The notes: generated from the letters alone by a model not told the origin. 64,000 bases of DNA from an uncultured Candidatus Saccharibacteria bacterium (GCA_964545165.1 CAZJEQ010000005.1:7072-71071); one strand, 5' to 3'. Counted from the stretch's first letter, positions 4,103 through 60,658 are shown. Translations and numbers: made by a program.

Positions 4103-4935
4103 ACGAAGTACTGTACCGCATTTCTAAAGAGCTGGAGGCCAGGACCCTCGCTCGGCAGGTCTTTGCCCTCACGCACATACTGCTCGCGCATGAGCGTCCA
4201 GTGCGGGAGCTGCGTAAAGCGCGTCGCGCGCTCGGGATGCGGCATCAGTCCTAGCACGCGGCCGCCATAACCCGTGACACCGGCGATATCTTCCATCGCC
4301 CCATTGGGATTGGCCGCGAGCCCCAGCGCTTCACACACATCACCTTTTACATACTTCAGTGCGATCGCTCCGTCATCTTTAAGCTGCGCGAGGGTCGCCG
4401 CAGGTGCGTAGTATTTGCCTTCGCCGTGCGCAATCGGCACCGAGAAACGATCGAGACCGGCGAGCCACGGGCTCTCGCCCACCACCTTGAGATCCACCCA
4501 GCGGCAGAGGTAGCGCGCGCGATCATTGGCGACGAGCGCACCCGGGAGCACTTGCGCGGCGGTCACCACCTGGAAACCATTGCAGATCCCTGCCATGAGC
4601 GTGTCGCGGCTGAGGAATTTCTCGAGATGCTCTCCCAGAGAAGAACGCACGCGATTGCCATACGCCTTGCCTGAGCCGGTGTCATCGCCGTAGGAGAAGC
4701 CTCCCGGGAAAATCACGATCTGCGCCTCTTTGAGCACCGCTGGGCGCGCGATCACATCGTTGAGATGGATGATGTCGGCCGAGGCACCCACCTGCTCGAA
4801 AACAGCCTTGGTCTCATCCTCGGTATTGAATCCGTATCCGGAAAATATGATGACGTGTGGCTTTTTCACCCCGTTAGAAATTCGCGTAGATTTTTCAGTG
4901 TTCATATATTTTCGAGGTTTTCTAACGGGGTTCAT
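4099..4935 (-). CDS. purQ: phosphoribosylformylglycinamidine synthase I (glutaminase subunit)
   Basis: ORF 4099..4944 (first codon TTG); first ATG at 4933-4935. KKPHVIIFSGYGFN...GICNGFQ...LMPHPER; class I glutamine amidotransferase. Confidence 0.85.
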   Translation of the reverse strand: MNPVRKPRKYMNTEKSTRISNGVKKPHVIIFSGYGFNTEDETKAVFEQVGASADIIHLNDVIARPAVLKEAQIVIFPGGFSYGDDTGSGKAYGNRVRSSLGEHLEKFLSRDTLMAGICNGFQVVTAAQVLPGALVANDRARYLCRWVDLKVVGESPWLAGLDRFSVPIAHGEGKYYAPAATLAQLKDDGAIALKYVKGDVCEALGLAANPNGAMEDIAGVTGYGGRVLGLMPHPERATRFTQLPHWTLMREQYVREGKDLPSEGPGLQLFRNAVQYFV

Positions 4936-4937
4936 AG

Positions 4938-7880
4938 TTACCAATTTTTGAAAGTGGATCGATAGGACTCCGTAAGCTCATCGACCGGAATGCGAACGGT
5001 GCCGCCAGAGAGTGAGATCGAGAGATCGCCGCTGTCGGAGACGGTGCCGATCTTGGTCAGCGCAACGCCTGTGAAGTGCTTCTCAAACGACTGCGCGGCA
5101 TCCGGGCGCACGGAGACAATCACGCGGCCCTGGCTCTCCGAGAAAAGTACGCTGTCCGCTTGCTTCGCCTTGCCGGGAATCTTCTTGAGCGAGATATCGG
5201 CGCCAAGCTGGCCTGCGATCGCCGCCTTCGAGAGCGCTGCGGCAAGGCCGCCGCGACCCACGGGTGTGGCGGAGACGACGAGCCCTTTGCGCATGGCGCG
5301 CTCGAGCGCACGATATGCACGCGCATTTTTCTTGAGGTCTACCTGCGCAACCTTGTTGCCGACCGAGCCGAGCATCGAGAAATATTCGGATGCACCCAAT
5401 TCATCATGCGTCTCGCCGATCAGGTACACACTGTCGCCCGGCATTTTGAAATCGATGGTCTGTGCATTCGCAGCATCGTCAACGACACCAATGGCAGAGA
5501 TCAGCAGCGTCGGCGGCGCGGCGACGTGAATAGGCGCGCCTTTCGGGGTAAAGCCGCGGAAATCGTTGAACATGCTGTCTTTGCCGGAGATGTAAGGTGT
5601 CCCGTACGCGACCGCGACGTCGTACACTGCCTCGGCGCTCTTTTTTAATTCATACAAACGCTCCGGCGTATTCGACGACGACCAGCAAAAGTTGTCGAGA
5701 ATCGCGAGGTAGTCGAGCGAGGCGCCCGCGCACACTGCATTGCGCACGGCGGTATCGATCGATGCAGCGGCCATATCGTAGGTGTCGATATCCGAGTACC
5801 ACGGCAAGTAACCGTGCGAGAGGACGACGCCCTTCTCGGATGTCGGTACGGGCTGCAGGACGCCCGCATCCACCGTCACGCGCCCGCGACCCTGCAGCGG
5901 CTTCGTGACCGAGGTGCCCTGCACTTCGTGATCGTACTGCTGCGCAATAAAGCTCGTCGATGCGATCGAAGGGCGTGCGAGAAGCTTGAGGATGGATTGA
6001 TCCAACTTGCCTTTGCGCACTGTCGCTTTGGGCTCAGCGTGTTTGTGGGCGTGCCTTTTGCCCTTTTGCTGCTCCACCGGTCGGCCGTCGTGGAGAAAAT
6101 CCATCGAGAGCTCCATGATCTGCTTGCCCTTGTTGCGCACGACGCACTTCTTCGCCGCCGTGAATTCTCCAATCACGGTCGCTTCCACGTCGTGGCGATC
6201 GAAGAGCTTTTTCAATTCCTTCCAATTTTTCTTCGGCACCGCGAGCGTCATGCGCTCTTGTGACTCGGAGATCCAGATCTGCCACGGCGAGAGGCCCGGG
6301 TATTTGAGTGGGACTTTGTCGATGTCCACCACGCAGCCGCCGCACTCCTTGGCCATTTCCGCGACGGAGCAGGAAATACCGCCCGCGCCGTTGTCGGTGA
6401 TGGATGAGTAGAGTGCGCGATCTCGCGCCTCGCGCACGATGGCATCAGAGAGCTTCTTCTGGGTGATCGGGTCGCCGATCTGCACGGCCGTCGCGGGCGA
6501 GCCGGATGAGAGTGATTCGGATGAGAAGGTCGCACCATGGACTCCATCCATACCGACACGGCCGCCGATCACGACCACCAGATCCCCTGCCTTGGCTTTC
6601 TTCTGTGCCAGATTGCGGCCTTTGTTTTTACGCGGGATCAGGCCGACGGTGCCTGCGAAGACGAGCGGCTTGCCACGGTAGCGTGGATCCACCGCGACGA
6701 AGCCAAGTGGTGTCGGGATGCCGCTCTGATTGCCTCCGTGATTGATGCCCTTGACCACGCCCTCGAGAATGCGGCGCGCCGGAAGAAGCGGCTGCGTCAG
6801 CGCCTTGTCGCGGTAGAGCACCGATGTGTCTGCCGGGTCGCCCACGCAAAAGCCGTACACATTGGCAATCGGTCGTGCGCCCATACCGAAGCCGAGCGCA
6901 TCACGATTCACGCCGACGATGCCGGTGATCGAGCCACCGAAGGGATCAAGTGCCGAGGGAGAATTGTGCGTCTCGACCTTGTGGGTCACGAGATACTGAT
7001 CGTCGAAGACGATGCCGCCGGAATTGTCCTTAAATACAGAGACACAGAAATCCTTCTTGCCCTTCTGCTTGCGAATCTTTTCCGTCGCACCCTTGATGTA
7101 CCGCTTGTAGATACCCTCCTTCACCTCATCGAGCGGATCCGCAAAGATCGAGTGCTTGCAGTGCTCCGACCAGGTCTGCGCGAGCGACTCGAGCTCGATG
7201 TCGGTCGGATTTCTCTTGAGCTTCTTGAAATGATCGCGAATCACCTGCATCGAATGCAGCGAAAGTGCGAGCGGTCCACGGCGGGTGCCGTCGGCGTTTG
7301 CAATACCCTGCTTGCCGATCTTGATGAGCTCCTCGTCACTGACGTTGAGATCGACTTCGTCTGCTTTTGGACTCTCGTGCAGATGGACCTGCGGGACGAC
7401 GACTGGAATCGCCTTACCAGCGGCGATGATCGCGGCGCGCTCGATGAGCGGATTGTAGAGCTCGCCCGCGAATTGCTCCGCCTCCTTCCTGCTCACCTTG
7501 CCGTGGAGGAAAAGGACCGTCGAGGTGTACACGTGTGCGCCATCCTTCACCTTCTTGCCGATCGCGCTCTCGAGCATCTCTTTGGCGGTGCGGCCGACAT
7601 TGTCGGTGACGCCCGGGAGGAATCCGATCTCGATCGCATATGCATACCCCTTGGGCGTCGGCACCTTGCCAATCGCATGCTTCTCCATCACGGGATGCGT
7701 GAGACTCTCGGCAAATTTCTTGAGCTGCGGCGCGCTCAGATTGGCATCCGTCGTGTAGACCGAAACGACGGAGATATCGGTAAGACCCGATTTCGGAAAG
7801 CGCGCCTGGAGCGTGCGCAGATAGCTTTTCGCGCGCGCATCCTCGATGGTCGAAACGATCGAGATCCGCTGCGCTGCCAT
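4938..7880 (-). CDS. purL: phosphoribosylformylglycinamidine synthase II with N-terminal PurS-like extension
   Basis: ORF 4938..7907 begins TTG; ATG at 7878-7880 (MAAQRISIV...) has a TATTAT hexamer 6 nt upstream. 980 aa vs ~740 for short PurL; no separate purS in the operon. Confidence 0.85.
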   Translation of the reverse strand: MAAQRISIVSTIEDARAKSYLRTLQARFPKSGLTDISVVSVYTTDANLSAPQLKKFAESLTHPVMEKHAIGKVPTPKGYAYAIEIGFLPGVTDNVGRTAKEMLESAIGKKVKDGAHVYTSTVLFLHGKVSRKEAEQFAGELYNPLIERAAIIAAGKAIPVVVPQVHLHESPKADEVDLNVSDEELIKIGKQGIANADGTRRGPLALSLHSMQVIRDHFKKLKRNPTDIELESLAQTWSEHCKHSIFADPLDEVKEGIYKRYIKGATEKIRKQKGKKDFCVSVFKDNSGGIVFDDQYLVTHKVETHNSPSALDPFGGSITGIVGVNRDALGFGMGARPIANVYGFCVGDPADTSVLYRDKALTQPLLPARRILEGVVKGINHGGNQSGIPTPLGFVAVDPRYRGKPLVFAGTVGLIPRKNKGRNLAQKKAKAGDLVVVIGGRVGMDGVHGATFSSESLSSGSPATAVQIGDPITQKKLSDAIVREARDRALYSSITDNGAGGISCSVAEMAKECGGCVVDIDKVPLKYPGLSPWQIWISESQERMTLAVPKKNWKELKKLFDRHDVEATVIGEFTAAKKCVVRNKGKQIMELSMDFLHDGRPVEQQKGKRHAHKHAEPKATVRKGKLDQSILKLLARPSIASTSFIAQQYDHEVQGTSVTKPLQGRGRVTVDAGVLQPVPTSEKGVVLSHGYLPWYSDIDTYDMAAASIDTAVRNAVCAGASLDYLAILDNFCWSSSNTPERLYELKKSAEAVYDVAVAYGTPYISGKDSMFNDFRGFTPKGAPIHVAAPPTLLISAIGVVDDAANAQTIDFKMPGDSVYLIGETHDELGASEYFSMLGSVGNKVAQVDLKKNARAYRALERAMRKGLVVSATPVGRGGLAAALSKAAIAGQLGADISLKKIPGKAKQADSVLFSESQGRVIVSVRPDAAQSFEKHFTGVALTKIGTVSDSGDLSISLSGGTVRIPVDELTESYRSTFKNW

Positions 7881-7933
7881 GCGGGCATAATAGCGCATTC
7901 GCCCCAAGTGCCAACTCTGCGTATGATGCCCCC

Positions 7934-8938
7934 ATGCAGAAATCGGAAGGACTCATACTGGGCAGGCTCTTGCAAAAGCTGGGCCGCACAATGGGTGCCA
8001 CCGTCGTGATCGAGCCAGAATGGGGCGTGGTCGGGCAGATCACCTTCAAATCAGGCAAGCGCAGCTACTTCCGCTACAACACGCTCGATCTCAATCCCGT
8101 GGGCGCCTCCGACGTTGCCAAAGACAAAGACTACGCAGCATTTTTTATCCGCAAGCTCGGCTTCCCCGCAGTGGAGGGCAAGACATTCTTCCGCGCGGAT
8201 TGGGCGCAGACGCTTGGATCGAAACGTGATATCGATGCCGCCTATCGCTACGCGGCGAAGCTTGGATTCCCCGTGATCGTGAAGCCCAACAGCGGCAGCC
8301 AGGGCACGGGCGTCGCACTCGCACACAACAAGAAAGACTTCTACCGTGCGATGCGCGCGGTATTCAAGAGCGACAAGGTCGCGCTCGTGCAGAGGAAAGT
8401 CAGCGGCACGGATTACCGCATCGTCGTACTCGATAACGAAATTATCTCCGCCTATGAGCGCATTCCGCTCAGCGTGACCGGCGATGGCCGCTCGACCATC
8501 GCACAGCTGCTCAATAAGAAGGCGCGCGGCTTCGTGGCCTCCAGCCGCGATACACAGCTCAACCTCGCGGACCCCCGCATGGGTGAAAAGCTCAAGCAGC
8601 AAAAGCTCTCGATGAAATCGGTCGTGCCAATGGGCGTGCAGATATTCCTCCTCGACAATGCCAATCTCTCAACCGGGGGCGACGCGGTGGATGCGACAGA
8701 GCGCGTACATCCGGAATTCAAAACGATCGCCATTCGCCTCACCCGCGAGATGGGCCTGCGCATCTGCGGCGTCGACCTGATGATCGAAGGCGATATTTCA
8801 CAGAAGCCCGGGAAATACCACGTGCTAGAGATCAACGCCGCCCCCGGACTCGATCACTATGTAAAGGGTGGCAAGGCGCAGGAGAAAATCGTCGAAGATT
8901 TGTACCTCCGCGTACTCAAGAGTTTGGCGCGCCCTTGA
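7934..8938 (+). CDS. ATP-grasp ligase (RimK/cyanophycin-synthetase-like)
   Basis: 334 aa; ...GFPVIVKPNSGSQGTGV...YHVLEINAAPGLDHY; divergent from purL with only 53-nt intergenic. Confidence 0.6.
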   Translation: MQKSEGLILGRLLQKLGRTMGATVVIEPEWGVVGQITFKSGKRSYFRYNTLDLNPVGASDVAKDKDYAAFFIRKLGFPAVEGKTFFRADWAQTLGSKRDIDAAYRYAAKLGFPVIVKPNSGSQGTGVALAHNKKDFYRAMRAVFKSDKVALVQRKVSGTDYRIVVLDNEIISAYERIPLSVTGDGRSTIAQLLNKKARGFVASSRDTQLNLADPRMGEKLKQQKLSMKSVVPMGVQIFLLDNANLSTGGDAVDATERVHPEFKTIAIRLTREMGLRICGVDLMIEGDISQKPGKYHVLEINAAPGLDHYVKGGKAQEKIVEDLYLRVLKSLARP

Positions 8939-10100
8939 GCGCATACGTCACGAAAAGCAGTGAGCAGATACCAAGTGCAACGATGGCAAGTCCATGCACG
9001 ACTCCCAAAAAGAGGAATGCAAGCAGACCGACCATAACAGCAAATAAGCTTCCGAGCGTGCGCGCTATCTCGATGGCTACTGCGGATTCAAGTGGATTAC
9101 CGCGTGTCGCCACATCAGCACCCAAATGAGCATCGAAGCCGACACGAAGAACGCCCTGCGCAATGCCGATAACGAGCAAGAGCATCCCGATAAACGGTGT
9201 AAGCGCTACATACGGCACCGTAAGTAAACCGGCGATAAAGAGAACGCCGCATATATAAAAGACCCATCGGTGAGATTTCTTATCCCACAAAATCCCTGTC
9301 GCATAGAGCAATAATGCAGAGCCAATGAGCGCGATGCTCGTTACGGTGACTGGCGTATTCACGCCCGCATACTGTGCTATCAGAAAAAGCGGAATAACGG
9401 TCGCAAGCGTGTCTGCAACAATGCCGTGCCCGATATTGCCGAATACCGCACGGGTGTTCAGCCGAGAGAACAGACTTCTCAGGGATGGATTAAAGACGAT
9501 GCTTGGCACATTGAGTGCGGGGATGTGCCGGAGCGGCATCAGCGAAAGCAGGAGGAAGACTGTCCCGAATAGAAAGAGATAGGCGAGAGAATCTTCACGA
9601 TTGAGCAGAAGCGCTACGACTCCAGCGATGACGATAGAAACTGCGCGGGCAATTTCGAGAAACGAACTATACAAACCAGGCTTTGCAGTATCACCGATGA
9701 TGGAATACTTGAGCATGTTCGAAAACAGGAAATACATTCCGTTGGCTGAGAAGAAAACGCAGAGCAACGCAACGAAAGGAATCAAGTGCGTGGCAAATGA
9801 ATCTTGAAAGACGAAAAGTGTACAGTTCACTCCCGTAAGAAGCGCCAGTGTAAGTCCTACGACGACGACGCCATTCGTCCGTCGATGGAAAGGTAACAAA
9901 AACAAGAGACTGAGCCATCGCGCTAAAAAGCCGACTCCGTAAGCTAGCGCCAACGCAACAAGCACGATGAGGAAGGAATGTGTGAGTTCATAAAAAAGAT
10001 ACACGCCGAATATGTCGGTAACTCCGAGCCCTATGCGAAAGAGTAGCGAATGCCAAAAGTAGTTCTTCTGTGCGACGGGGAGTGAACGGAACGAATTCAT
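8916..10100 (-). CDS. MFS-type transporter (multi-TM)
   Basis: ORF 8916..10121; start trimmed to ATG 10098-10100 (MNSFRSLPVAQ...), which forms an ATGA overlap with folA stop. About 12 predicted TM helices. Confidence 0.55.
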   Translation of the reverse strand: MNSFRSLPVAQKNYFWHSLLFRIGLGVTDIFGVYLFYELTHSFLIVLVALALAYGVGFLARWLSLLFLLPFHRRTNGVVVVGLTLALLTGVNCTLFVFQDSFATHLIPFVALLCVFFSANGMYFLFSNMLKYSIIGDTAKPGLYSSFLEIARAVSIVIAGVVALLLNREDSLAYLFLFGTVFLLLSLMPLRHIPALNVPSIVFNPSLRSLFSRLNTRAVFGNIGHGIVADTLATVIPLFLIAQYAGVNTPVTVTSIALIGSALLLYATGILWDKKSHRWVFYICGVLFIAGLLTVPYVALTPFIGMLLLVIGIAQGVLRVGFDAHLGADVATRGNPLESAVAIEIARTLGSLFAVMVGLLAFLFLGVVHGLAIVALGICSLLFVTYALKGAPNS

Positions 10101-10597
10101 GCGCGTTCGAGGTCGACCCACGAATATTTCACGCCATCGGATTCGCGATCTTCGCGGAAGACTTCTCGTGTAAATTCGCTTTCAAATGCGGGGAAAAAGG
10201 TGTCGCCCTCCGCTTCAGCATCTATAAATGTCATGCAGAGGCGCGTCGTGAATGGCAGCGCCTGCTCGTAGATCTGCGCGCCGCCGCCGATCGTGATCCA
10301 CTCCTGATCGATCTCTTTTGCCTTCTCTATCGCTTCTTCTACCGATGCAGCGACGATGACACCCTCGTATTTCCAGTCCGCATCACGCGTGACGACAATA
10401 TTCGTACGATTACGCAGCGGCTTGCCTAAGTAGCCGACGATGGATTCAAAGGTCTTCCTACCAAGGATGATTGGGTGGCCTTCGCTCAATTGCTTAAAGC
10501 GTTTCAAATCCTCCGGGATGTGCCACAGGAGTTTGTTTTCTTTTCCCAAAACTCTGCCTTTTCCTATCGCGACTATGGCTGCAATCACCGGTTTCAT
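10097..10597 (-). CDS. folA: dihydrofolate reductase
   Basis: MKPVIAAIVAIGKGRVLGKENKLLWHIPEDLKRFKQLSEGHPIILGRKTFESI...; canonical DHFR. Confidence 0.85.
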   Translation of the reverse strand: MKPVIAAIVAIGKGRVLGKENKLLWHIPEDLKRFKQLSEGHPIILGRKTFESIVGYLGKPLRNRTNIVVTRDADWKYEGVIVAASVEEAIEKAKEIDQEWITIGGGAQIYEQALPFTTRLCMTFIDAEAEGDTFFPAFESEFTREVFREDRESDGVKYSWVDLERA

Positions 10598-10673
10598 GCC
10601 CGAACAATACCACACCCCATTTCCACTGGCCCTGCAATCCCCTCCTACTCTCTGCGGGCTATACTGTCAGTCC

Positions 10674-11348
10674 ATGCAATCCTACGAAGTCGAAATCAAG
10701 GCACTTCTAGGCACTCCCGAGCGAGCGGACGCACTGCGCGCCGCACTCAAAAAAGAAGATCCTGAGATGCAGCTCACCTCGCAGAATAAACAGCTCAATC
10801 ATTATTTCGAAGGCGGCACGATCGAAGTGCTTGCGAATAATCTCGCCCCCCATCTCGACGATGCAAAGCAAGCGCAGCTCGCGGACATCGCGGCGCGCGC
10901 CAAGGGATTCTCGGTGCGCACCCGCGACAAAGACGGCGCAGTACTGATCGTCGTCAAAGCATCAGTCGGCGATGACACGAGCGCGAACGGCGTGTCGCGC
11001 ATCGAATTCGAGGCAGAGATGCCGCTCTCCATCAATCAGCTTGACGAGATCGTGCTCCAGAGTGGCTTTTCCTACCAGGCCAAGTGGTCGCGCGAGCGCG
11101 AGGAGTATCTGGTGAATGGTGTAAATGTCTGCCTCGATAAAAATGCTGGCTATGGCTACCTCGCCGAATTCGAGCGGGTCGTCGATGATCAGGCCAAGGT
11201 CGCTGACGCCGAAAAGGAGCTGCGTGCCTTTATGACCACCGTCGGTGCGGAGGAGCTACCACAGGGTCGGCTCGAGCGGATGTTTGCCTTCTATAATGCC
11301 AATTGGCCGGAATATTACGGCACGGATAAAATATTTAATATCGACTAG
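10674..11348 (+). CDS. CYTH-domain protein (class IV adenylate cyclase / triphosphatase fold)
   Basis: ORF 10440..11348 trimmed to ATG 10674 (MQSYEVEIKALLG...; ExExK motif). GCTATACT hexamer 8 nt upstream of ATG. Confidence 0.6.
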   Translation: MQSYEVEIKALLGTPERADALRAALKKEDPEMQLTSQNKQLNHYFEGGTIEVLANNLAPHLDDAKQAQLADIAARAKGFSVRTRDKDGAVLIVVKASVGDDTSANGVSRIEFEAEMPLSINQLDEIVLQSGFSYQAKWSREREEYLVNGVNVCLDKNAGYGYLAEFERVVDDQAKVADAEKELRAFMTTVGAEELPQGRLERMFAFYNANWPEYYGTDKIFNID

Positions 11349-11350
11349 CT

Positions 11351-11911
11351 ATGTTTCTCTCTGACATCGACATCGAAAAGAATCTCGCCGAAGGGCGCCT
11401 CACGCTCAAGCCCTTTGATGTGAAGCGCCTCCAGCCCGCGAGCTACGACATCTGCCTCGGCAATAAATTCGTCGTCAACGACGAGCACTCGACGCATTTC
11501 ATCGATCCCGCCAAGAAAATCTACGCCAGGACCCGCGAGATCAACCTCAAAGATGGTGAGGAATTCGTGCTCCACCCGGGGATCTCGGTGCTCGGCACGT
11601 CCAAGGAATACTTCGGCTCCGATCACTTCCTCATCCAGGTCGGCGGCAAATCGAGCCTCGCGCGCATCGGCCTCATGATCCACAACACCGCTGGCATCAT
11701 TAATCCTGGCCACTTCCTCAACATCACCTTCGAGATCACGAATCAAAACAACATTCCGATCATTCTGCGCCCCGGTATGGAAATCGCGCAGATCACCTTC
11801 TCGATGATCTCGTCCCCGACCAAGCAGAACTACAAGAAGACCGGCCGCTTCGCCAAGGACAATTGGAAACACTTCGTGCAGGCGAAACCCAAGAAGACCG
11901 CCAAGAAATAA
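11351..11911 (+). CDS. dcd: dCTP deaminase
   Basis: 186 aa, MFLSDIDIEKNLAEGRLTLKPFD...; dUTPase-fold Dcd family. Confidence 0.85.
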   Translation: MFLSDIDIEKNLAEGRLTLKPFDVKRLQPASYDICLGNKFVVNDEHSTHFIDPAKKIYARTREINLKDGEEFVLHPGISVLGTSKEYFGSDHFLIQVGGKSSLARIGLMIHNTAGIINPGHFLNITFEITNQNNIPIILRPGMEIAQITFSMISSPTKQNYKKTGRFAKDNWKHFVQAKPKKTAKK

Positions 11912-11912
11912 T

Positions 11913-12884
11913 ATGGAAAAGCGCCACCCCGAGTATCAATATCTAGACTTACTGCGGGAGACGCTTGAGCGCGGCGATCAGCAGACAGACAAAGACCACG
12001 GCATCAAGACCTACAGCGCCTTTGGTGCACAGATGCGCTTCGATCTCTCTGAGGGCTTCCCGCTCCTCACCACCAAGCGCGTGTATTGGAAGGGCGTCCT
12101 CCATGAGCTGTATTGGTTTATGTCGGGCCAGTCCAACATCAAATACCTCGTCGACAACGATGTGCACATCTGGGATGACTATCCGTACAAGATTTACATG
12201 GAGCGAGCCGAGAAGGGTGAGGAGTCGAAGATGACCAAGGAAGAATTCATTGGCAAGATCAAAGACGATGCGGCATTTGCGGCAGCGCATGGTGAGTTGC
12301 CGCACATCTATGGCGAATCGTGGCGCCGCTGGCCCGCCAATGATGGCCGCGCAGTAGATCAATTGCAGTGGGTAGTGGATGAGCTGAAGCGCGATCCCGA
12401 TGCGCACAACACGCTCGTGACTTCCTGGAATCCCCCGTACCTGTACTCCATGGCACCAGCCAACAAAGGTGCACGCTTCCCGATCTGCCACAACATGTAC
12501 CAGGTCAACATCAAGCGCGACAAAGTCTGCCTCCAGCTCTATCAGCGAAGCGCTGATATGTTCCTCGGCGTCCCCTTCAACATCGCGAGCTATGCGCTAC
12601 TCACGCAGATCCTCGCGCACATTCTGAAGCGCGAGGCGGGAGAATTCATCCACACCTTCGGCGACTACCACATGTACGATACGCACCGCGAGCAGGTCAA
12701 AGAGCAGCTCGCGCGCGAACCGAAAGCATTTCCGAAGATCTCATTCACCCAAGACTTTGATTCGCTCGATGCCTTCCGCCCTGAATTCGTCTCGCTCGAA
12801 GGCTATGAGCCGCATCCGGGGATCAAGGCGGAGCTCGTAGTGGCGGGTGGATTTAGCAAAAACCTTCACGCGGTGAAAGAATAA
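11913..12884 (+). CDS. thyA: thymidylate synthase (ThyA type)
   Basis: 323 aa; ...FPLLTTKRV...LPPCH-like FPICHNMYQ...DMFLGVPFNIASYALL... Confidence 0.9.
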   Translation: MEKRHPEYQYLDLLRETLERGDQQTDKDHGIKTYSAFGAQMRFDLSEGFPLLTTKRVYWKGVLHELYWFMSGQSNIKYLVDNDVHIWDDYPYKIYMERAEKGEESKMTKEEFIGKIKDDAAFAAAHGELPHIYGESWRRWPANDGRAVDQLQWVVDELKRDPDAHNTLVTSWNPPYLYSMAPANKGARFPICHNMYQVNIKRDKVCLQLYQRSADMFLGVPFNIASYALLTQILAHILKREAGEFIHTFGDYHMYDTHREQVKEQLAREPKAFPKISFTQDFDSLDAFRPEFVSLEGYEPHPGIKAELVVAGGFSKNLHAVKE

Positions 12885-12904
12885 TTATTATTTACGGTAG
12901 CGAT

Positions 12905-14176
12905 ATGAAAAATCAGTACCCATTTATCAAAAAGCAGGATAAGCAAGTCTACGCCGCAATCGAGGGCGAGGAGCAGCGCGAGCGCGAAGGGCTCGAGCTC
13001 ATCCCTTCGGAGAATTACGTCTCGCGCGCAGTGCGTGAGGCCAACGCGTCGGTCTTCACCAACAAATATTCCGAAGGCTATCCGGGCCGTCGCTACTACG
13101 GCGGCCAGACCTACACCGACCACGTGGAGAACATCGCACGCGATCGTGCCAAGAAGCTCTTCAAGGCAGGCTTCGCCAACGTGCAGCCGCATGCCGGTGC
13201 ACCGGCGAATGTCGCGATGTACTTCGCGCTGCTTGAGCCGGGCGACACGGTGCTCGGCATGGATCTCTCGCACGGCGGGCACCTCACCCACGGACACCCG
13301 GTCACCTATCTCACCAAGATCTTCAATTTCGTCCGCTATAAGATGAAGAATGCGGACACCGGAGAAATCGACTACGACGAAAAGCGCAAGGTCGCCAAAA
13401 AAGAGCGTCCGAAGATTCTCCTCGGCGGCTACTCAGCGTATCCGCGCGAACTCGACTACAAGATCATGGCAGATATCGCGCACGAAGTCGGCGCGGTCGC
13501 CGTTATGGATGCGGCACACATCGCCGGCATGATAGCGGGCAAGGCAATGAAGAATCCTTTTGACTATGGATTCGATGTGATTACGACGACCACGCATAAG
13601 ACCTTGCGCGGTCCGCGTGGTGGCATGATCCTCACCCGCGAGAATGAGGAGATCGCCAAGAAAATCGACAAGGCCGTCTTCCCCGGCTTCCAGGGGGGAC
13701 CCCTCATGCACAACATCGCAGCGAAGGCAGTGTGCTTCGGCGAGGCACTCAATCCGAAATTCAAGGTCTACGCCAAACAGGTTCTCAAAAATGCGAAGGC
13801 CATGGAAAAGGTCTTTATCAAAAACGACATTCGTCTCTTGACGGGCGGCACCAGCTCACACCTCTTACTCGCTGATGTGTACGGTAGCTTGGGCATGGGT
13901 GGTCGCGAAGCAGAGACGCTCCTCGACGAGGTCGGCATGACACTCAACATGAATTCCATCGCCGATGACACGCGCAAACCCATGGACCCCTCGGGCATCC
14001 GCTTCGGTACCCCGGCGATCACGACCCGCGGCTTCAAGGAAAAGGATTGTGCACGCGTGGCGGAGCTCATGGTAGAGACACTGAAGAACAAGGACGACAA
14101 GAAGAAGCTCAAAGCCGTCCGCGAAGAAATCCGCAAGATGTGCAAGAAACTCCCCGTCCCTAACTCGTTCGTCTAG
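12905..14176 (+). CDS. glyA: serine hydroxymethyltransferase
   Basis: 423 aa; ELIPSENYVSRAV..., TTTTHKTLRGPRGG PLP-lysine region. Confidence 0.9.
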   Translation: MKNQYPFIKKQDKQVYAAIEGEEQREREGLELIPSENYVSRAVREANASVFTNKYSEGYPGRRYYGGQTYTDHVENIARDRAKKLFKAGFANVQPHAGAPANVAMYFALLEPGDTVLGMDLSHGGHLTHGHPVTYLTKIFNFVRYKMKNADTGEIDYDEKRKVAKKERPKILLGGYSAYPRELDYKIMADIAHEVGAVAVMDAAHIAGMIAGKAMKNPFDYGFDVITTTTHKTLRGPRGGMILTRENEEIAKKIDKAVFPGFQGGPLMHNIAAKAVCFGEALNPKFKVYAKQVLKNAKAMEKVFIKNDIRLLTGGTSSHLLLADVYGSLGMGGREAETLLDEVGMTLNMNSIADDTRKPMDPSGIRFGTPAITTRGFKEKDCARVAELMVETLKNKDDKKKLKAVREEIRKMCKKLPVPNSFV

Positions 14177-14226
14177 CTTGCAGCGCAGCAGACTCCTTGG
14201 CATGATTCCTCAAGCGGAAGGAGGAT

Positions 14227-14511
14227 TTGATGTGCGATATCCACTATCTACACGCGGCCAAAGGCCCGGAAGCGATCATTCGTGCATCGTGGCGGTCGCT
14301 TCCTCAGGAGAATGCTGAGTCGTGGGTCATCAACAGCGCACGTGCGGTCATCGAAGACGAGACGTACCGTGTGCCACCTGATGCTTGGCACAATTACATG
14401 GAGGCCAACGTGCGGACAGAGATGCAATTCGCACGCACGTTCGGCAATGGTCCCGACGGTTTCCTCGACCGCGTGCGGTCGATGGCAGCGGCACGCATCG
14501 AGCACGGATAG
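14227..14511 (+). CDS. hypothetical small protein (94 aa)
   Basis: Complete ORF followed by intrinsic terminator; no recognisable domain. Confidence 0.4.
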   Translation: MMCDIHYLHAAKGPEAIIRASWRSLPQENAESWVINSARAVIEDETYRVPPDAWHNYMEANVRTEMQFARTFGNGPDGFLDRVRSMAAARIEHG

Positions 14512-14524
14512 CACAACGAAAGGG

Positions 14525-14550
14525 AGCGGGCTCCTCGCCCGCTCTTTTCA
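14525..14550 (+). terminator. rho-independent terminator
   Basis: GAGCGGGC-tcct-GCCCGCTC hairpin followed by TTTTCA. Confidence 0.6.
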
Positions 14551-14565
14551 CGTTATACTGCCCCG

Positions 14566-15159
14566 ATGCATATTGATCTCGTCCCCATCGTCCAGATGAT
14601 CGGCTACCCGGGCATCTTCACGATCATCTTCTTAGAGAGCGGTGTCTTCTTTGGATTCTTCTTGCCGGGTGCATCGCTTCTCTTCACGGCAGGCATTCTC
14701 GCCTCGCAGGGCTATTTCAATCCCTGGATTCTCATTCCGCTCGTCACCGTGGCCGCAGCGCTTGGCGACAATGTCGGCTATTGGTTTGGAAAAAAATACG
14801 GCATCAAACTCTTCCTGCGCCCTGACTCACGTTTTTTTAAACACGAGCACCTCGAGCGCGCCAAGAATTTCTACGATAAGTACGGCTCGCGCACGGTCCT
14901 CTTCGCCCGATTTATCCCCATCGTCCGCACCTTCGTGCCCATCGTCGCGGGCGTCGTGCATATGAATTACCGCAAATTTGTCTTCTTCAACATCGTCGGA
15001 GCCGTGGCCTGGGCAGGCGGCGTGACCTCGATCGCCTATTTCCTGGGCACCAATGTGCCGGCGGTGCGAGACTATTTCGGCTACATCATCCTCGGCATCA
15101 TCCTTGTCACCTCGGTACCCGTCATGATCGATATCTGGCGCAATCGCCACAATCTTTAA
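14566..15159 (+). CDS. DedA/VTT-family membrane protein
   Basis: 197 aa; ...GYWFGKKYG...ARFIPIVRTFVP...; TATACT hexamer 6 nt upstream of ATG. Confidence 0.8.
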   Translation: MHIDLVPIVQMIGYPGIFTIIFLESGVFFGFFLPGASLLFTAGILASQGYFNPWILIPLVTVAAALGDNVGYWFGKKYGIKLFLRPDSRFFKHEHLERAKNFYDKYGSRTVLFARFIPIVRTFVPIVAGVVHMNYRKFVFFNIVGAVAWAGGVTSIAYFLGTNVPAVRDYFGYIILGIILVTSVPVMIDIWRNRHNL

Positions 15160-15971
15160 GCCCTTTGCTTGAGGAGCTCGAGACCACCATAGAGGCCACC
15201 GATATCTTCGAGCGAGGAGTGCACGATTTCCGGCAGGCGCGGATATTTTCTGTTGAGTTTCTCGATATAAAATGTGATGCGATCTACCGAGATTCCTACC
15301 TCATTCATCATCGAGCCACCGATCACGATGCGTTCGGGCGACCAATGCACGATGGAATTGTAGAGCCCGTACGCCGCGTATTCGGCGAGGGACTCCCACA
15401 CTTCATGATCCTTGCCCAGCTCGCGCGGGTGCACCCCATATTTCTGCTGCACCGCCTTGCCAGAGAGCACGTCGCCGAGATGCATCGCCTGGCCGTCGAT
15501 AAAAATGTACTGCTCGCCTATTTCGCTGCCGTAGACACTGCGCTCGAGCTGGCCGTCGACGATGCGTGCGGCATTCACGCCGGTGGAGATCGTCATGTAC
15601 ACCACGATCGATGCGCCCTTGCCCGCGCCATGCACCGCTTCGCCGAGACCGACAAGCGCGGTGTCATTGATCGCGTGGACCGTGGCATGGAGTGCACCCG
15701 AGAGATCGTCGACGATAGGTCGGCCGTCCCACTCGGGCATATTGGAATCATGGAGCGATTGCTTCTCCGGCACGATCACGCCGGGGAGCCCGAGCGAGAT
15801 GCCGCGTATTTCTTCGCCCCGCGCGAGATCCTTCGCGATCTGCACGATCTTCGCCATGCCGTCTGCGTAATTGACGGGCGTGTCGATCTTGACCGGCTCG
15901 CCAAAGGACTGCAGGTCGGTGCTTGCCGCGACGCGCGTCTTGGTACCACCAATGTCTGTGAGAATGTACAT
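15156..15971 (-). CDS. ROK-family sugar kinase (glucokinase-like)
   Basis: 271 aa, MYILTDIGGTKTRVA..., ROK fold. Confidence 0.75.
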   Translation of the reverse strand: MYILTDIGGTKTRVAASTDLQSFGEPVKIDTPVNYADGMAKIVQIAKDLARGEEIRGISLGLPGVIVPEKQSLHDSNMPEWDGRPIVDDLSGALHATVHAINDTALVGLGEAVHGAGKGASIVVYMTISTGVNAARIVDGQLERSVYGSEIGEQYIFIDGQAMHLGDVLSGKAVQQKYGVHPRELGKDHEVWESLAEYAAYGLYNSIVHWSPERIVIGGSMMNEVGISVDRITFYIEKLNRKYPRLPEIVHSSLEDIGGLYGGLELLKQRA

Positions 15972-15976
15972 ATCGA

Positions 15977-16945
15977 TTAGGCGATGCGGCGTTTGAAATC
16001 CTCGACAACCGGCACGTCCTCGTCGGGCACCCCGTAGTGAGCAGCGAGCGAGAGCGCCAACCAGTCAGCAATCGTGACGGCTCGGAGCGCCTTCTGGAGG
16101 CCCGCACCTTCGAGCTGCACGTGCTCGACGGGCATGCCCTTCTCCTCAAATACCTCGGATGCGGCCTGCATACGCTTTTGAATGCGCGGATGGTCGCTCG
16201 CATCGTGGAGCATGATCACATGCATATTGGCGGAATTGGCACGGGTCGCATCAACGATGTCGAAGCCGCAGAGCTCGTTGTGATTCATCTCAGGGAAAAC
16301 ATTATAGAAGGCAGGCGCTTTACCGGTCTCGTTGATCTTGATCTTCCACATCATCGTCACGATGGTATTCGCTGCGGAGCCGTAGATCACCGGGACTTTG
16401 CCGTAGAGGCGCTCAGCGAGACGCTTACCTTCTGCTTCGAGCGCGAGCGCATCGATGGCAGTGCCCGCCGCACGAATATCCGCAATGAGCTGCTCATCGC
16501 GCAAGAGCGCGGCGATCGAGAGCATGGAGAGGGCCGTCGCGACACGGGGCTGAAGATCGAGGTGCGGGAAAATGACGTGCGGCACCGCGTGCTCGCGAGC
16601 GAAGTCGGCGAGCTTGCCGCCGGTCGTCACCACTGCGACGGGGAGCGCGCGCGCGAGTGCCTCGCGGCCGCTATCGAGCACTTCTTCGGTGTTGCCCGAA
16701 TGAGAGCTCAAGATCACGAGTGCATTGTCGTACATGCTCTGCGGGAGCTTCGGCAGTCCGTAATCGCGATGAATGATGATTTCGGGGTGATTCCCATAAT
16801 CACGCACAATCGTGCCACCCATATGGGACCCGCCCATACCGCAGACGATCACGAATTGGTAGGACCGCAACGCTTCTGGATGTTCGATGGTGGGCTGCCA
16901 CGCGAATTGTTCTTGAAATCGCCCGATTGCATCTCGCATTGCCAT
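15977..16945 (-). CDS. bifunctional phosphoglucose/phosphomannose isomerase (SIS domain, archaeal type)
   Basis: 322 aa; ...VIVCGMGGSHMGG...SHSGNTEE... Confidence 0.75.
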   Translation of the reverse strand: MAMRDAIGRFQEQFAWQPTIEHPEALRSYQFVIVCGMGGSHMGGTIVRDYGNHPEIIIHRDYGLPKLPQSMYDNALVILSSHSGNTEEVLDSGREALARALPVAVVTTGGKLADFAREHAVPHVIFPHLDLQPRVATALSMLSIAALLRDEQLIADIRAAGTAIDALALEAEGKRLAERLYGKVPVIYGSAANTIVTMMWKIKINETGKAPAFYNVFPEMNHNELCGFDIVDATRANSANMHVIMLHDASDHPRIQKRMQAASEVFEEKGMPVEHVQLEGAGLQKALRAVTIADWLALSLAAHYGVPDEDVPVVEDFKRRIA

Positions 16946-16970
16946 ACTGTTGGTAAATTGGATTGTAGCA

Positions 16971-18920: not shown

Positions 18921-18923
18921 AAT

Positions 18924-20117: not shown

Positions 20118-20146
20118 GGCGTAAGAAGTCTCTGTATTTTATCACC

Positions 20147-21355: not shown

Positions 21356-21396
21356 GTTGGTGCAATTTTATCACGCACTGTGCTACCCTTTCCTCC

Positions 21397-22152: not shown

Positions 22153-22157
22153 TGCGA

Positions 22158-23567: not shown

Positions 23568-23674
23568 ATGTACAATTATACCACTCGTTTCTCCTTTGTC
23601 TACGGCCTGTTTCTCTCCCCCAAATCGTCTCAAAGGCCCGAATAGCGCTGCGTACAGCCGCTATACTTATGGCC

Positions 23675-26345: not shown

Positions 26346-26354
26346 GTGAGCGTA

Positions 26355-26885: not shown

Positions 26886-26888
26886 AGC

Positions 26889-27266: not shown

Positions 27267-27274
27267 GAGAGATA

Positions 27275-27781
27275 GTGTATCATCTCGGTATGTTCAGACG
27301 CAATGAAGACCCCATCGACCACAAATTTCTTCTCCAGGTGGTGCAGCCAGCACTGATCGGCCTTATCGACGGCTCAGTCTCCACGCTTGCACCCATCTTC
27401 GCAGCAGCATATGCCAGCGGCAATCCGCACGTCGTCTTCCTCGTAGGTGCCGCCGCATCCATCGGCGCTGGCATCTCCATGGCATTTGCAGAAGGCCTCT
27501 CTGACACCGGCGAGCATACGGGTCGCGGGCACCCATTTGTGCGTGGTGCAATCGTCGGCGTCGCGACGTTCTTCGGCGGTATTTTGCATAGCCTCCCGTT
27601 TCTCATTGCGGATATGCAGGTCGCGCTCTACCTTGCATACGCGATCGTCGCGGTCGAATTACTCTCGATCGGCTACATCCGCTATCACTACTTCCGCCTA
27701 AGCTTCTGGCTCTCGGTGGCACAGGTCGTCTTTGGCGGAGCACTCGTGCTCGCCGCAGGTATCCTGATAGGTAGCGCCTAA
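27275..27781 (+). CDS. VIT1/CCC1-family membrane protein
   Basis: 168 aa; VIT-family TM pattern. Confidence 0.6.
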   Translation: MYHLGMFRRNEDPIDHKFLLQVVQPALIGLIDGSVSTLAPIFAAAYASGNPHVVFLVGAAASIGAGISMAFAEGLSDTGEHTGRGHPFVRGAIVGVATFFGGILHSLPFLIADMQVALYLAYAIVAVELLSIGYIRYHYFRLSFWLSVAQVVFGGALVLAAGILIGSA

Positions 27782-28212: not shown

Positions 28213-28240
28213 CGCGTCGCGAGTATAGCATAATACTGCC

Positions 28241-29516: not shown

Positions 29517-30107
29517 GTGCGTGATATACTCGTCACGATGCGCATCGTGACGTTTGATATTGAAACGGCAAATTGGCTCTCCGAAGGCAATGGCATGCAG
29601 GATCTCAACATCGCGATTGCCTGTATTCACGATTCGGAAACGGATGAGTACTCGAGCTATCTCGAGAGCGAACTGCCCAAGCTCTGGCCGATTCTGGAGC
29701 GCACCGATATGCTCATCGGCTACAACTCCAATCACTTTGATATTCCCCTCCTCAACAAATACTACCCAGGTGATCTGACCAAAATAAAGAGCCTTGATCT
29801 GCTCGTTGAGATTAAAAATACCCTCGGCCGCTCGCTGCGTCTCGATGCGGTTGCCGATGGTACGCTCGGGGTGCGCAAAAGCGGCAGCGGCTCGCAATCG
29901 CTCCAGTGGTGGCGTGCCGGCGAAATCGACAAGGTGCGCCAGTACTGCCTTAAAGACGTGGAGATCACCAAGCGCGTCTACGAGCACGCACTGCAAAAAG
30001 GCTTTCTCAAATACAAGGAGCTCGGACGCTCACACGAGATCAAGATAGATACTTCGAAGTGGCTCACACCGGCGAATCAGCCGATGACCTTCTCGCTCGG
30101 TTTCTAA
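29517..30107 (+). CDS. DEDD-family 3'-5' exonuclease (RNase H-like)
   Basis: GTG start with AGAGGT SD 8 nt upstream; ...VTFDIETA... Exo I motif; YCLKDVE. Confidence 0.65.
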   Translation: MRDILVTMRIVTFDIETANWLSEGNGMQDLNIAIACIHDSETDEYSSYLESELPKLWPILERTDMLIGYNSNHFDIPLLNKYYPGDLTKIKSLDLLVEIKNTLGRSLRLDAVADGTLGVRKSGSGSQSLQWWRAGEIDKVRQYCLKDVEITKRVYEHALQKGFLKYKELGRSHEIKIDTSKWLTPANQPMTFSLGF

Positions 30108-30582: not shown

Positions 30583-30608
30583 TCAGATCATTTTACCACT
30601 CAAATCAT

Positions 30609-31656: not shown

Positions 31657-31680
31657 CAATCAGTATGATAACGTGTTGTA

Positions 31681-33412: not shown

Positions 33413-33424
33413 ACTCTGATCTGT

Positions 33425-33943: not shown

Positions 33944-33962
33944 GCGCTTATCGTAGCATTAC

Positions 33963-35915: not shown

Positions 35916-35942
35916 GAAAAGACACTATACCCTAGGCGAGGT

Positions 35943-39993: not shown

Positions 39994-40032
39994 GGGCCGA
40001 TAATATCACACCGCATCGGCGCAAATTATGTG

Positions 40033-43089: not shown

Positions 43090-43160
43090 GCGCAAGAACT
43101 CTAATTTCTAATGGGAGATTCATTGTACTCCTCCTCGTTCTCGGCGAGGCGAGATGAAAA

Positions 43161-43878: not shown

Positions 43879-43927
43879 TTCGGACTGGCCGAAAAAGTCG
43901 TCGAGCATCAGAGAAGTATACCCTTGA

Positions 43928-44428: not shown

Positions 44429-44447
44429 GCCAATAATGATAGCACTG

Positions 44448-45644: not shown

Positions 45645-45780
45645 AGGACGCATTATAGAAGAAAGCTCCTCTTTCGAGGAGCCTCCTTTTAGTGACCGCC
45701 GCCCATCATATTGGTTGGGTAGTTAGCAACTATGTATTCAGTATCGCATAGGCCAAGCCCCGCGCGATCACGCATGGGGA

Positions 45781-47154: not shown

Positions 47155-47161
47155 CGCACAA

Positions 47162-47370
47162 GTATAACCTTCAAATTCTCAGCAGAGAATTTGAAGAGTT
47201 ACACCCGGACATATCTCTGCAGAGATATGACGTGGGGCGTCACCTGAAGATTCTCAGCAGAGAATCTCAAGAGTTATGCCCGGACACATCTCTGGAGGGA
47301 TGTGACGTGGGGTATAACCGAAGAGTTACACCCGGACATATCTCTGCGGAGATATGACGTTGGGCATACC
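47162..47370. repeat. composite palindromic repeat cluster (units A1-B1-A2-B2-B3), right flank of islet
   Basis: A is TTCAAATTCTC-agca-GAGAATTTGAA. B is GTTACACCCGG-[22-nt palindrome centred on CTGCAG, CTGGAG or CTGCGG]-CGTGGGG.... Three B copies have cores ACATATCTCTGCAGAGATATGA, ACACATCTCTGGAGGGATGTGA and ACATATCTCTGCGGAGATATGA. Confidence 0.7.
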
Positions 47371-50143: not shown

Positions 50144-50228
50144 ATATACCTCCATGGTAGCAAATCCTGAACGCTTCAATACGTGGTAGCTGTGCAGACC
50201 CCGCTTAGAGGCAAGGCATTATGCGACA

Positions 50229-53183: not shown

Positions 53184-53205
53184 GCAAATATTATATCACG
53201 CGCAT

Positions 53206-57148: not shown

Positions 57149-57161
57149 GTCACCATTATAA

Positions 57162-59746: not shown

Positions 59747-60658
59747 TCACGAATAGCTCAAAGAGGCGCGATTATCCCAGATCTGATCAAACACTCCCGT
59801 ACCTGCCCATTGGATAACGATGCCAGAGGTGGAGTCGACTTTTTTGATACGCCATGACGCGGCAGATGTAGCTGATCCGATCGCCGCTTCGCCGACATAA
59901 TCGACTGAGCCTACCGTTGCCAGCCGAAGCGAGAATTTGAATCCTCCAAAAGAAATCGTTTGCAGCGTTGTCTCGGTAGACGCTGATGCAGGGAGAGCTG
60001 AGCTCAACACGTCGACCTGCACATGGCGGTCGGCATCGACGAGGCCGCTTTTGGCAACATCTCCCGAGTCACTAAAGCTGCTGGATCCCGCGCCCGGAAG
60101 CGAGGTGACCTTGACTGCCAACGACCCCGAATCAAACGTGAGGTCTGAGGTCTTCAGCAAGGTCGAGAGCGTTTCTTGGGTGGCCGGATTTATTCGGGCA
60201 TTGGAAGCATTTTTGACCCCCACGACACCGGTCGTCGGTGAACTGCCCATGATTAAAGCATCCGCTCCTTTTGGCATGAGCTGTGAGGCAACGAGTCCGG
60301 CACCAGCAATGCCCGCGGCTTTGATAAAGGTCCTTCTATGCGTATCTCCGACCGTTGTTTTGGCGGAGAGGTCCAGCGGTATCGTAGGTTTCTGCTCCTG
60401 CGAAACTGCTGCTACCTGTTCTGTCGTCGACGAGAAATCTGATCCGGCACGCCGTCTTCTCACCAAAGAAAAAGAGTGCGTATTGGGCAAAAACGCGCTT
60501 GCATCATATGCGAGCCCCGCACCAGCGAGTGCGGAAGACACCACTGGAGATTCATCATCAGAAATTGTTGCTGTCGCTGACGCTGTCGCAAACGAAAAAT
60601 CTGACCCGACATGCCGTCTTCGCACCAACGAAAAAGAATGTGTGTTTGGTAACAACAT
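59747..60658 (-). CDS. hypothetical exported protein with duplicated N-terminal leader and an internal twin-arginine-like motif (RRTFIKAAGIAGAG)
   Basis: 303 aa. Residues 1-22 (MLLPNTHSFSLVRRRHVGSDFS) are repeated at residues 55-77. GGAG 15 nt upstream of ATG. Confidence 0.45.
   Translation of the reverse strand: MLLPNTHSFSLVRRRHVGSDFSFATASATATISDDESPVVSSALAGAGLAYDASAFLPNTHSFSLVRRRRAGSDFSSTTEQVAAVSQEQKPTIPLDLSAKTTVGDTHRRTFIKAAGIAGAGLVASQLMPKGADALIMGSSPTTGVVGVKNASNARINPATQETLSTLLKTSDLTFDSGSLAVKVTSLPGAGSSSFSDSGDVAKSGLVDADRHVQVDVLSSALPASASTETTLQTISFGGFKFSLRLATVGSVDYVGEAAIGSATSAASWRIKKVDSTSGIVIQWAGTGVFDQIWDNRASLSYS
60432..60657. repeat. 66-nt direct repeat x2 (about 80% identity, 160-nt spacing) spanning the 5' end of gene 59747..60658
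   Basis: 60432-60497 vs 60592-60657. Confidence 0.6.

Follow-up and report, generated by a model that had tools for sequence, protein, structure and literature searches.

The stretch of DNA analysed here, hereafter called the window, is 64,000 nt long and is read on one strand, with all coordinates counted from its first letter; it carries 55 protein genes, three tRNAs and RNase P RNA. The subject of this report is a hexamer, TANNNT, that resembles the -10 element of bacterial promoters and lies a few nucleotides upstream of start codons in the window. The arrangement is illustrated by the starts of purL (minus strand, 980 aa; Pfam AIRS, AIRS_C and FGAR-AT linker) and of a RimK-like ATP-grasp gene (plus strand), which diverge from each other and are separated by 53 nt only (7881-7933). 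As an earlier note on this DNA had proposed, this short intergenic region accommodates two boxes. On the purL side, TATTAT (7887..7892, minus strand) is separated by the six nucleotides gcccgc from the ATG at 7880 (7878..7880, minus strand), which is the predicted +1, and is preceded, with a 16-nt spacer, by a -35-like TTGGCA (7909..7914, minus strand), the pair of hexamers matching the sigma-70 consensus at 10 of 12 positions. On the other side, TATGAT (7922..7927, plus strand) is followed by the six nucleotides gccccc and by the ATG at 7934 (7934..7936, plus strand), again the predicted +1. The N-termini of the purL orthologues align to the purL ATG, with alignments that begin at residues 1-5. 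The TTGGCA-16-TATTAT-6-ATG arrangement would drive the purL-purQ-AAA_28-purK-purE-purM(-purC) operon leftwards as a leaderless mRNA, and TATGAT-6-ATG would drive the RimK-like ATP-grasp gene rightwards. The 6-nt discriminators are often very G+C-rich, as seen with gcccgc (7881-7886) and gccccc (7928-7933) at this locus, and with gccccg (14560-14565) and cggccc (39994-39999) elsewhere.

Genes were called using a self-trained codon-usage score, candidate starts were listed for each open reading frame (ORF), and all products were annotated with Pfam. Four gene calls were corrected: the starts of murJ and DUF1761 were shifted, guided by Pfam coordinates and upstream stop codons, one ORF was split, and a gene for DHFR was added. 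The spacer is the number of nucleotides between the end of the hexamer and the start codon, and the range tested was 5-9. A gene is termed uncoupled when it is divergent from its neighbour or at least 12 nt downstream of it (n = 40), and tightly coupled when it starts at -8 to +7 nt from the preceding stop (n = 15). Start codons were assigned in two ways. The motif-blind rule takes the first ATG of every coding ORF (n = 53 genes) and ignores TANNNT, while curation of the starts gave 29 motif-bearing genes (28 before folA, the DHFR gene, was added).

Hexamers upstream of gene starts

Under the motif-blind rule, TANNNT was found at a spacer of 5-9 in 21 of 53 genes, compared with 7 of 329 internal in-frame ATGs (odds ratio 30, p = 1e-14). 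The enrichment at 5-9 nt that the earlier note had offered for checking is therefore present in this window, with internal ATGs as the control. The counts were 11, 6, 3 and 2 at spacers 6, 7, 8 and 9, respectively, other positions having a background of about 0.3 each. The counts peak sharply at spacers 6-7 and are not raised at 0-5 or at 10-15 nt. When the 64 patterns of the XYNNNZ type are compared, TANNNT is a clear outlier, being present at 26 of the 40 uncoupled genes as against 8 for the runner-up. An artefact caused by stop codons, in which the hexamer would begin with TAA or TAG, was ruled out since the signal survives the removal of such hexamers: upon restriction to TAYNNT, which comprises none of them, the peak is kept (8, 5 and 2, the background being 0.5). 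The same pipeline applied to 50 kb of E. coli K-12 detected TANNNT in 1 of 39 cases and no peak. When all ATGs of the window are considered, TANNNT-N6/7-ATG occurs 45 times, mildly above the 34 ± 6 occurrences in shuffled sequences. Since the whole-window count is close to that of the shuffles while the gene-start count is high, the signal is specific to gene starts.

In the curated set, the hexamer precedes 27 of 40 uncoupled genes but only 2 of 15 coupled ones (p = 6e-4). The spacer (n = 29) is 6 in 13 cases, 7 in nine, 8 in four and 9 in three, and 28 of the 29 motif-bearing start codons are ATG. The ten hexamer/ATG pairs listed in the earlier note were all found in the sequence with the spacings given there; none of the ten has a Shine-Dalgarno (SD) motif upstream, as had been claimed, and Pfam confirmed all the gene names used (CYTH, DedA/VTT, HYR, FAD oxidase, hisS, SET, ATP-grasp and purL). 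The further claim that most first genes have this architecture holds for the permissive TANNNT motif (27/40, 68%) but not when a match to TATAAT at no fewer than five of six positions is demanded, in which case the proportion drops to about half (19/40).

The consensus of the hexamer is TATAaT/TATAcT, and its upstream flank is that of an extended -10 element. A G is found at -14 in 20 of 28 cases (21 of 29 with folA), and TGn precedes 12 of the 28 start-proximal hexamers as compared with 54 of 768 (7%) of all TANNNT in the window (p = 5.5e-8), folA adding one more case. The -35 region of the start-proximal boxes displays no general consensus. A two-hexamer sigma-70 scan returned 9 matches against 10.2 in shuffles; as this is no enrichment, a -35-dependent promoter model was dropped in favour of the extended -10. 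Good -35 boxes are confined to purL and HYR, whose sites are exactly the top two full sigma-70 matches given by a consensus scanner over 7000-26999. The HYR box, TATAAT with TGg (23575..23580, minus strand; TATAAT-tgtacat-ATG(23567), 7 nt), and its -35, TAGACA (23597-23602, minus strand), match sigma-70 at 11 of 12 positions.

In three divergent pairs, whose ATGs are separated by 23, 28 and 53 nt, each gene has a box of its own. In the tightest of them, TACACT with TGa (27274..27279, minus strand), located 7 nt before ATG 27266 of a thioredoxin-like gene, and TATCAT (27278..27283, plus strand), located 6 nt before ATG 27290 of VIT1, overlap by 2 nt within AGTGTATCAT (27274-27283). In the SET/hisS pair, with 28 nt between the ATGs, the boxes are one base apart within AGTATAgCATAAT (28222-28234): TATACT with TGc for SET (28222..28227, minus strand; TATACT-cgcgacgcg-ATG(28212), 9 nt) and CATAAT for hisS (28229..28234, plus strand; CATAAT-actgcc-ATG(28241), 6 nt), with TAGCAT (28226-28231, 9 nt) as an alternative for the latter. 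Because these boxes overlap or abut, two polymerases could hardly bind simultaneously at either pair. The position of the hexamer, restricted to uncoupled genes, its TGn extension, its consensus and the tight divergent pairs therefore identify it as a promoter element. The sequence TGNTATNNT occurs 16 times in the whole window, without excess over shuffles (17.7); nine of these sites are followed within 40 nt by the start of a protein-coding gene, and one lies about 80 nt upstream of tRNA-Phe. Only some 5-6 of the 16 are inside coding sequence, which hints that extended -10 sites may be avoided within genes.

Conservation of the boxes was assessed in relatives. The best purL matches (64-70% identity) belong to metagenome-assembled genomes of 52-57% G+C that bear the labels Kaiserbacteria, Paceibacterota, Parcubacteria or Patescibacteria. 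Judged by these closest purL relatives, which are genomes of the candidate phyla radiation (CPR), the window is from a Kaiserbacteria-like Parcubacterium, a member of the CPR/Patescibacteria (ultra-small bacteria). The comparison covered 80 loci from purL relatives, 73 bacterial (Patescibacteria) and seven archaeon-labelled, whose genes were called with a crude gene caller. TANNNT is found at a spacer of 5-9 before purL orthologues in 43 of 76 loci. Among the closest relatives, L004, L006, L007 and L009 have also retained the divergent ATP-grasp gene, and in these four both boxes are kept with spacings of 5-8 nt, unlike the remainder of the intergenic region and its length, which vary; TATGAT or CATGAT stands at the matching spacing before the ATP-grasp gene in L004, L006 and L009, and a clear TTGAyy -35 for purL is seen, at the position of the TTGGCA of the window, in relatives L005-L007, L009, L010 and L012. 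In each of the five CYTH orthologues, TATAAT, TATGAT or TATACT stands 6-8 nt from an exactly aligned ATG. The positional peak was found in all G+C classes of the 73 bacterial loci, with 25, 16 and 22 hexamers at spacers 6, 7 and 8 (background 3.8) in loci of at least 50% G+C, and 85, 36 and 39 (background 17.6) in loci below 42% G+C; across the bacterial loci, it holds with TAYNNT. The seven archaeon-labelled loci displayed no peak at 6-8 nt. A contig search with the ATP-grasp protein gave a sole match, a 1.4-kb Logan contig from SRR14271331 that provided no extra context.

SD motifs do not rise above background. SD 4-mers at -16..-4 occur in 6% of the window genes versus 12% at a control position, and in 6-11% of the genes of relatives against a background of 10-12%, while the identical procedure gave 44% versus 8% in E. 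coli. SD 5-mers in more than 1,100 CPR genes rise marginally, if at all, at positions 5-13, where E. coli gives a clear peak. Operon-internal genes follow the preceding gene at stop-start distances of -8 to +7 nt, and no tandem pair is found at 8-11 nt. The 13 uncoupled genes that have no proximal box comprise six with an extended -10 further upstream, one linked to a tRNA, one with an SD and five without an assigned signal. In the first six (PGI, GH57, GT4, Grx, a 303-aa gene and a repetitive protein), TGnTAnnnT lies 16-36 nt upstream, which corresponds to short SD-less leaders. A tRNA-Gly(CCC) (33412-33498, minus strand) ends 12 nt before the ATG of a FAD-binding gene, and the interval holds no promoter; the mRNA of this gene may come from processing of a tRNA-mRNA co-transcript, which would generate a near-leaderless 5′ end by another route.

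Probable leaderless expression and its alternatives

Taken as a whole, a motif that stands at a set position, is confined to uncoupled genes, carries a TGn extension and is conserved in relatives, along with the absence of SD motifs, is best explained by a leaderless promoter architecture with extended -10 boxes, to which I give a probability of about 0.8. The earlier note had likewise taken the hexamer for a -10 element, a reading to which the spacing and the sigma-70 scan lend further support. In the proposed mechanism, RNA polymerase containing the primary (housekeeping) sigma factor would read the extended -10, TGnTAnnnT, with little or no contribution of a -35. The -10 element lies 7 bp upstream of the mapped transcription start site across 49 bacteria (PMC12641261). 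Combined with the modal spacer of 6, this distance puts the transcription start site at the A of the ATG, so that transcription would begin there, or 1-3 nt earlier when the spacer is 8-9. As such an mRNA would have neither a 5′ untranslated region nor an SD, the first cistron would have to be initiated directly on the 5′-terminal AUG; the downstream cistrons, SD-less as well, would presumably be reached by termination-reinitiation coupling. The messages of the boxed genes are very probably leaderless. About two thirds of the transcription units of the window would thus be of the leaderless type, with a minority having short SD-less leaders and one gene having a canonical SD.

Several points weigh against this interpretation. 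I infer the exact point at which transcription starts, and with it the leaderless state, from the geometry of box and start codon, and reinitiation is inferred as well. The sole convincing SD in the 64 kb, AAGGAGG, lies 5 nt before ATG 14230 (14216-14232), the start of a 93-aa ORF that has no Pfam match and is co-directional with glyA; it suggests that the ribosome may still hold an anti-SD, which is therefore perhaps retained, and may still use SD motifs. The window contains no rRNA gene, and no 16S 3′ end was found among the 80 loci. Eight of the 27 uncoupled hits match TATAAT at 3-4 of six positions only (for instance glyA, HAD, ribonucleotide reductase and HxlR), and some of these weak hexamers may be chance matches, of which roughly 2 are expected. 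A single site stands before a GTG (53183), a poor start codon for leaderless translation, and spacers of 8-9 nt imply leaders of 1-3 nt, not strictly zero. About 7 of the curated starts were picked with the motif in view, which makes the curated comparison partly circular, the motif-blind test being already decisive. Finally, plasmid MP1 of Deinococcus radiodurans, intended as a leaderless positive control, gave neither an SD nor a -10 peak, using the first-ATG rule and a crude gene caller on a replicon that is 63% G+C and rich in insertion sequences, and was discarded as uninformative.

One alternative is that the hexamer is not a promoter but a translation signal carried by leadered mRNAs, of the 'group B' kind described below: a ribosome-binding motif other than SD, for instance an A/U-rich enhancer or a motif that partners an altered 3′ tail of the 16S rRNA. 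SD motifs are indeed absent, the motif is at the distance expected of a ribosome-binding site, and part of the Parcubacteria have been reported to be devoid of an anti-SD (PMC9297842). A ribosome-binding site, however, would be expected before operon-internal genes too, and only 2 of 15 carry the motif. Furthermore, a TATAAT consensus with a promoter-type TGn extension, as well as the -35 boxes of purL and HYR at 16 nt, point to RNA polymerase, and in the divergent pairs with 23-28 nt between ATGs any promoter located further upstream would be pushed into the neighbouring gene. A translation signal is therefore an improbable explanation. It is just as improbable that the promoters are real and that translation is nonetheless not leaderless, the true starts being further downstream and the leaders being made of sequence called coding here. 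Such a shift is compatible with the box that precedes GTG 53183, where the next ATG is 75 nt downstream. It is at odds with the Pfam domains, which start only a few residues after the proposed ATGs, with the alignment of the purL orthologues from their very first residues and with the conservation, in orthologues, of a constant distance of 6-7 nt between the box and an in-frame ATG.

The boxes could also be apparent only, produced by chance from A+T-rich intergenic DNA and from the choice of starts. The modest excess in the all-ATG count and the weakness of some hexamers would fit such a compositional artefact. It is refuted by the motif-blind test with its p of 1e-14, by the XYNNNZ control, in which no other pattern is enriched, and by the TAYNNT restriction; the sharpness of the peak, confined to its narrow range of spacers, the conservation of the boxes in orthologues and the lack of a peak in the E. 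coli control likewise make chance a highly improbable explanation. The leaderless promoter architecture thus remains the preferred reading.

The remaining boxes and their genes

The earlier note had suggested that the motif helps in picking start codons. Several starts in the window were indeed put right with its aid, and two neighbouring genes bear this out. The CYTH gene has TATACT (10660..10665, plus strand; gcTATACT-gtcagtcc-ATG(10674), 8 nt), and a 78-codon upstream extension of its ORF is excluded because the Pfam domain begins at residue 4 from the proposed ATG. The corresponding first residue is 5 for DHFR, 4 for the LepA GTPase, 5 for ROK, 6 for FMN reductase (FMN_red) and 4 for AIR carboxylase. 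In the case of folA, the motif led to a gene missed by the ORF caller: TATTGT with a TGg extension (10604..10609, minus strand) lies 6 nt before ATG 10597, which opens a DHFR gene (10597..10097, minus strand; Pfam DHFR_1, 2e-47, residues 5-163). An uncharacterised 394-aa gene downstream (ATG 10100) overlaps the DHFR stop by 4 nt and is hence stop-start coupled. The DHFR gene lies in an apparent 573-nt gap and forms, with dcd-thyA-glyA on the other strand, a thymidylate/folate cluster.

The other boxes on the plus strand are as follows. That of DedA is TATACT (14554..14559; TATACT-gccccg-ATG(14566), 6 nt), directly after a terminator hairpin (14524-14544); that of the FAD oxidase is also TATACT (23662..23667; gcTATACT-tatggcc-ATG(23675), 7 nt), and an RNase H-like gene has TATACT with TGa (29525..29530) 7 nt before ATG 29538. 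glyA is preceded by a weak -10-like TACGGT (12893..12898), 6 nt before ATG 12905, which is uncertain, and a HAD hydrolase by a weak -10-like TACCCT with TGc (21384..21389), 7 nt before ATG 21397. For an HxlR regulator, the -10-like hexamer is either TAACGT with TGa (31669..31674), 6 nt before ATG 31681, or TATGAT, 11 nt upstream.

On the minus strand, a 100-aa ORF (ATG 30582) has TAAAAT with TGg (30590..30595) at 7 nt, a 124-aa ORF (ATG 33943) has TACGAT with TGc (33950..33955) at 6 nt, lepA (ATG 35915) has TATAGT (35924..35929) at 8 nt, and a TPR protein (ATG 39993) has TATTAT with TGa (40000..40005) at 6 nt. The weak -10-like TAGAGT of ribonucleotide reductase (43098..43103), 8 nt before ATG 43089, is uncertain. 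TATACT precedes both DUF192 (43915..43920; 6 nt before ATG 43908) and a DAO oxidoreductase (47161..47166; 6 nt before ATG 47154). DUF1761 has TATCAT with TGc (44436..44441) 7 nt before ATG 44428, within the 19 nt that follow the upstream stop codon. A second ATP-grasp gene has TATAAT (45652..45657; TATAAT-gcgtcct-ATG(45644), 7 nt), directly after a terminator-like hairpin, and a Vut_1 transporter has a -10-like TACCAT with TGc (50154..50159) 8 nt before ATG 50145. TATAAT with TGa (53190..53195) is located 6 nt before GTG 53183, the sole non-ATG case, whose start is uncertain, and TATAAT (57155..57160; TATAAT-ggtgac-ATG(57148), 6 nt) precedes a 1161-aa gene. The hexamers found before the two coupled genes are both weak and are probably due to chance, or else are weak internal promoters: TACAGT (4110..4115, minus strand), 7 nt before ATG 4102 of the operon-internal AAA_28 gene, and TAATAT (11336..11341, plus strand), 9 nt before ATG 11351 of the operon-internal dcd.

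The intrinsic-terminator-like hairpins with T-runs that abut the -10 boxes of DedA (14524-14559) and of the second ATP-grasp gene (about 45652-45690) lie directly against these boxes, so that the terminator fills the would-be -35 position. Upstream of two other boxes, a 16-bp palindrome, ATTCyCTGCTGrGAAT, is found in four perfect copies (43929-43944, 44001-44016, 47175-47190 and 47250-47265), with 0.54 expected even if 2 mismatches are allowed. The copies form pairs, 72-75 bp apart, upstream of DUF192 and of the DAO oxidoreductase, and in each the proximal copy, ATTCCCTGCTGGGAAT for DUF192 and ATTCTCTGCTGAGAAT for DAO, ends 8 nt before the -10. From its arrangement, this looks like a paired operator for a regulator of both putatively leaderless promoters.

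A possible gene for a 42-aa hydrophobic peptide, MSFLFHKRTKKVLNIVGSAVALVLILSMVVFFAPGLVNLLTQ (33972-34100, plus strand), is divergent from the 124-aa ORF at 33943 and has TACAAT 6 nt before its ATG. An extended -10, TGTTATATT (30270-30278, minus strand), comes just after the stop codon of the 100-aa ORF; tRNA-Phe lies about 80 nt downstream of this site, which is possibly its promoter. The segment 53663-63998 contains large genes without a Pfam match (1161, 704 and 303 aa). A 1366-codon plus-strand ORF at 59901 was rejected, the sequence being really occupied by a minus-strand gene (60658..59747) and by a plus-strand gene starting at 60783. The latter encodes a secreted protein that exceeds 1072 aa and consists of long repeats rich in Ala, Ser, Thr and Asn, and its antisense strand displays several long shadow ORFs.

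Comparison with known systems

The closest known counterpart is group C of GeneMarkS-2 (mainly Actinobacteria and Deinococcus-Thermus, e.g. M. tuberculosis and Deinococcus deserti), in which the first genes of operons start 6-8 nt from a Pribnow box, an element that internal genes lack (PMC6028130). In that group, 25-50% of operons are predicted to be leaderless, and 167 of 262 were measured to be so in D. deserti (PMC6028130). The window shares with group C the -10 box at 6-7 nt before first genes and the scarcity of the motif before operon-internal genes (2/15), and its predicted leaderless fraction, about two thirds of the units, equals or exceeds the highest values of the bacterial range. 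It differs from group C in that the remaining genes of the latter carry an SD, whereas here SD motifs are at background and internal genes are stop-start coupled, and in its lineage, the Patescibacteria, which are not discussed in PMC6028130.

The resemblance to other classes is more partial. As in Bacteroidota-type 'group B', where SD motifs are absent genome-wide, they are at background in the window; but group B has one non-SD motif before both first and internal genes of leadered mRNAs (PMC6028130), while the present motif is promoter-like and confined to uncoupled genes. Archaeal 'group D' (e.g. Haloferax, Sulfolobus) is mostly leaderless, and SD plays little role in it (PMC6028130). Both traits would be shared by the window, but the archaeal TATA box lies about 26 nt upstream. 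With extended -10 (TGn) sigma-70 promoters the boxes have in common a TG, or a G, one base upstream of TAnnnT and a weak or absent -35. Compared with ordinary promoters of this type, the promoter itself is not unusual, and it is its fixed position relative to the start codon that is distinctive.

Whether the same holds for all Patescibacteria (CPR), that is, whether they run an essentially SD-free initiation with leaderless first cistrons and stop-start reinitiation downstream, can be proposed only tentatively, at odds slightly short of even. If true, the CPR would be the third large bacterial lineage with dominant leaderless expression, and a deep-branching lineage would be added to the debate on ancestral leaderless initiation. 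CPR mRNAs would then need no 5′ untranslated region, which would be useful in designing expression constructs for the few cultivable Patescibacteria. Gene finders trained on SD motifs would misplace CPR starts wherever a longer TTG, GTG or ATG extension exists, and the -10 box would provide a simple corrector.

S1 is dispensable for leaderless translation. In the CPR, bS1 is reported to be shortened, and about half of the Parcubacteria to have no 16S anti-SD motif (Tsurumaki et al. 2022; PMC9297842). Dominant leaderless expression, if true, would provide a functional rationale for the loss of the anti-SD, the shortened bS1 and the reduced ribosomes of Parcubacteria, and it suggests how organisms with reduced ribosomes, some of them devoid of an anti-SD, begin translation. 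Searches of the literature for leaderless together with CPR, Patescibacteria, Parcubacteria or Saccharibacteria gave incidental mentions or reference-list matches only; unsearched literature or annotation pipelines may hold such a description. PMC9297842 deals with rRNA and ribosomal proteins, not with mRNA architecture, and the term leaderless is absent from it. The organism studied here belongs to the same CPR/Parcubacteria lineage as the members that lack an anti-SD, and SD pairing is presumed to be unused in both; unlike them, it perhaps keeps its anti-SD, judging by the SD at 14230. The window thus presents a known architecture in a lineage for which no prior description was found, and the near-total absence of SD motifs among the other genes sets it apart.

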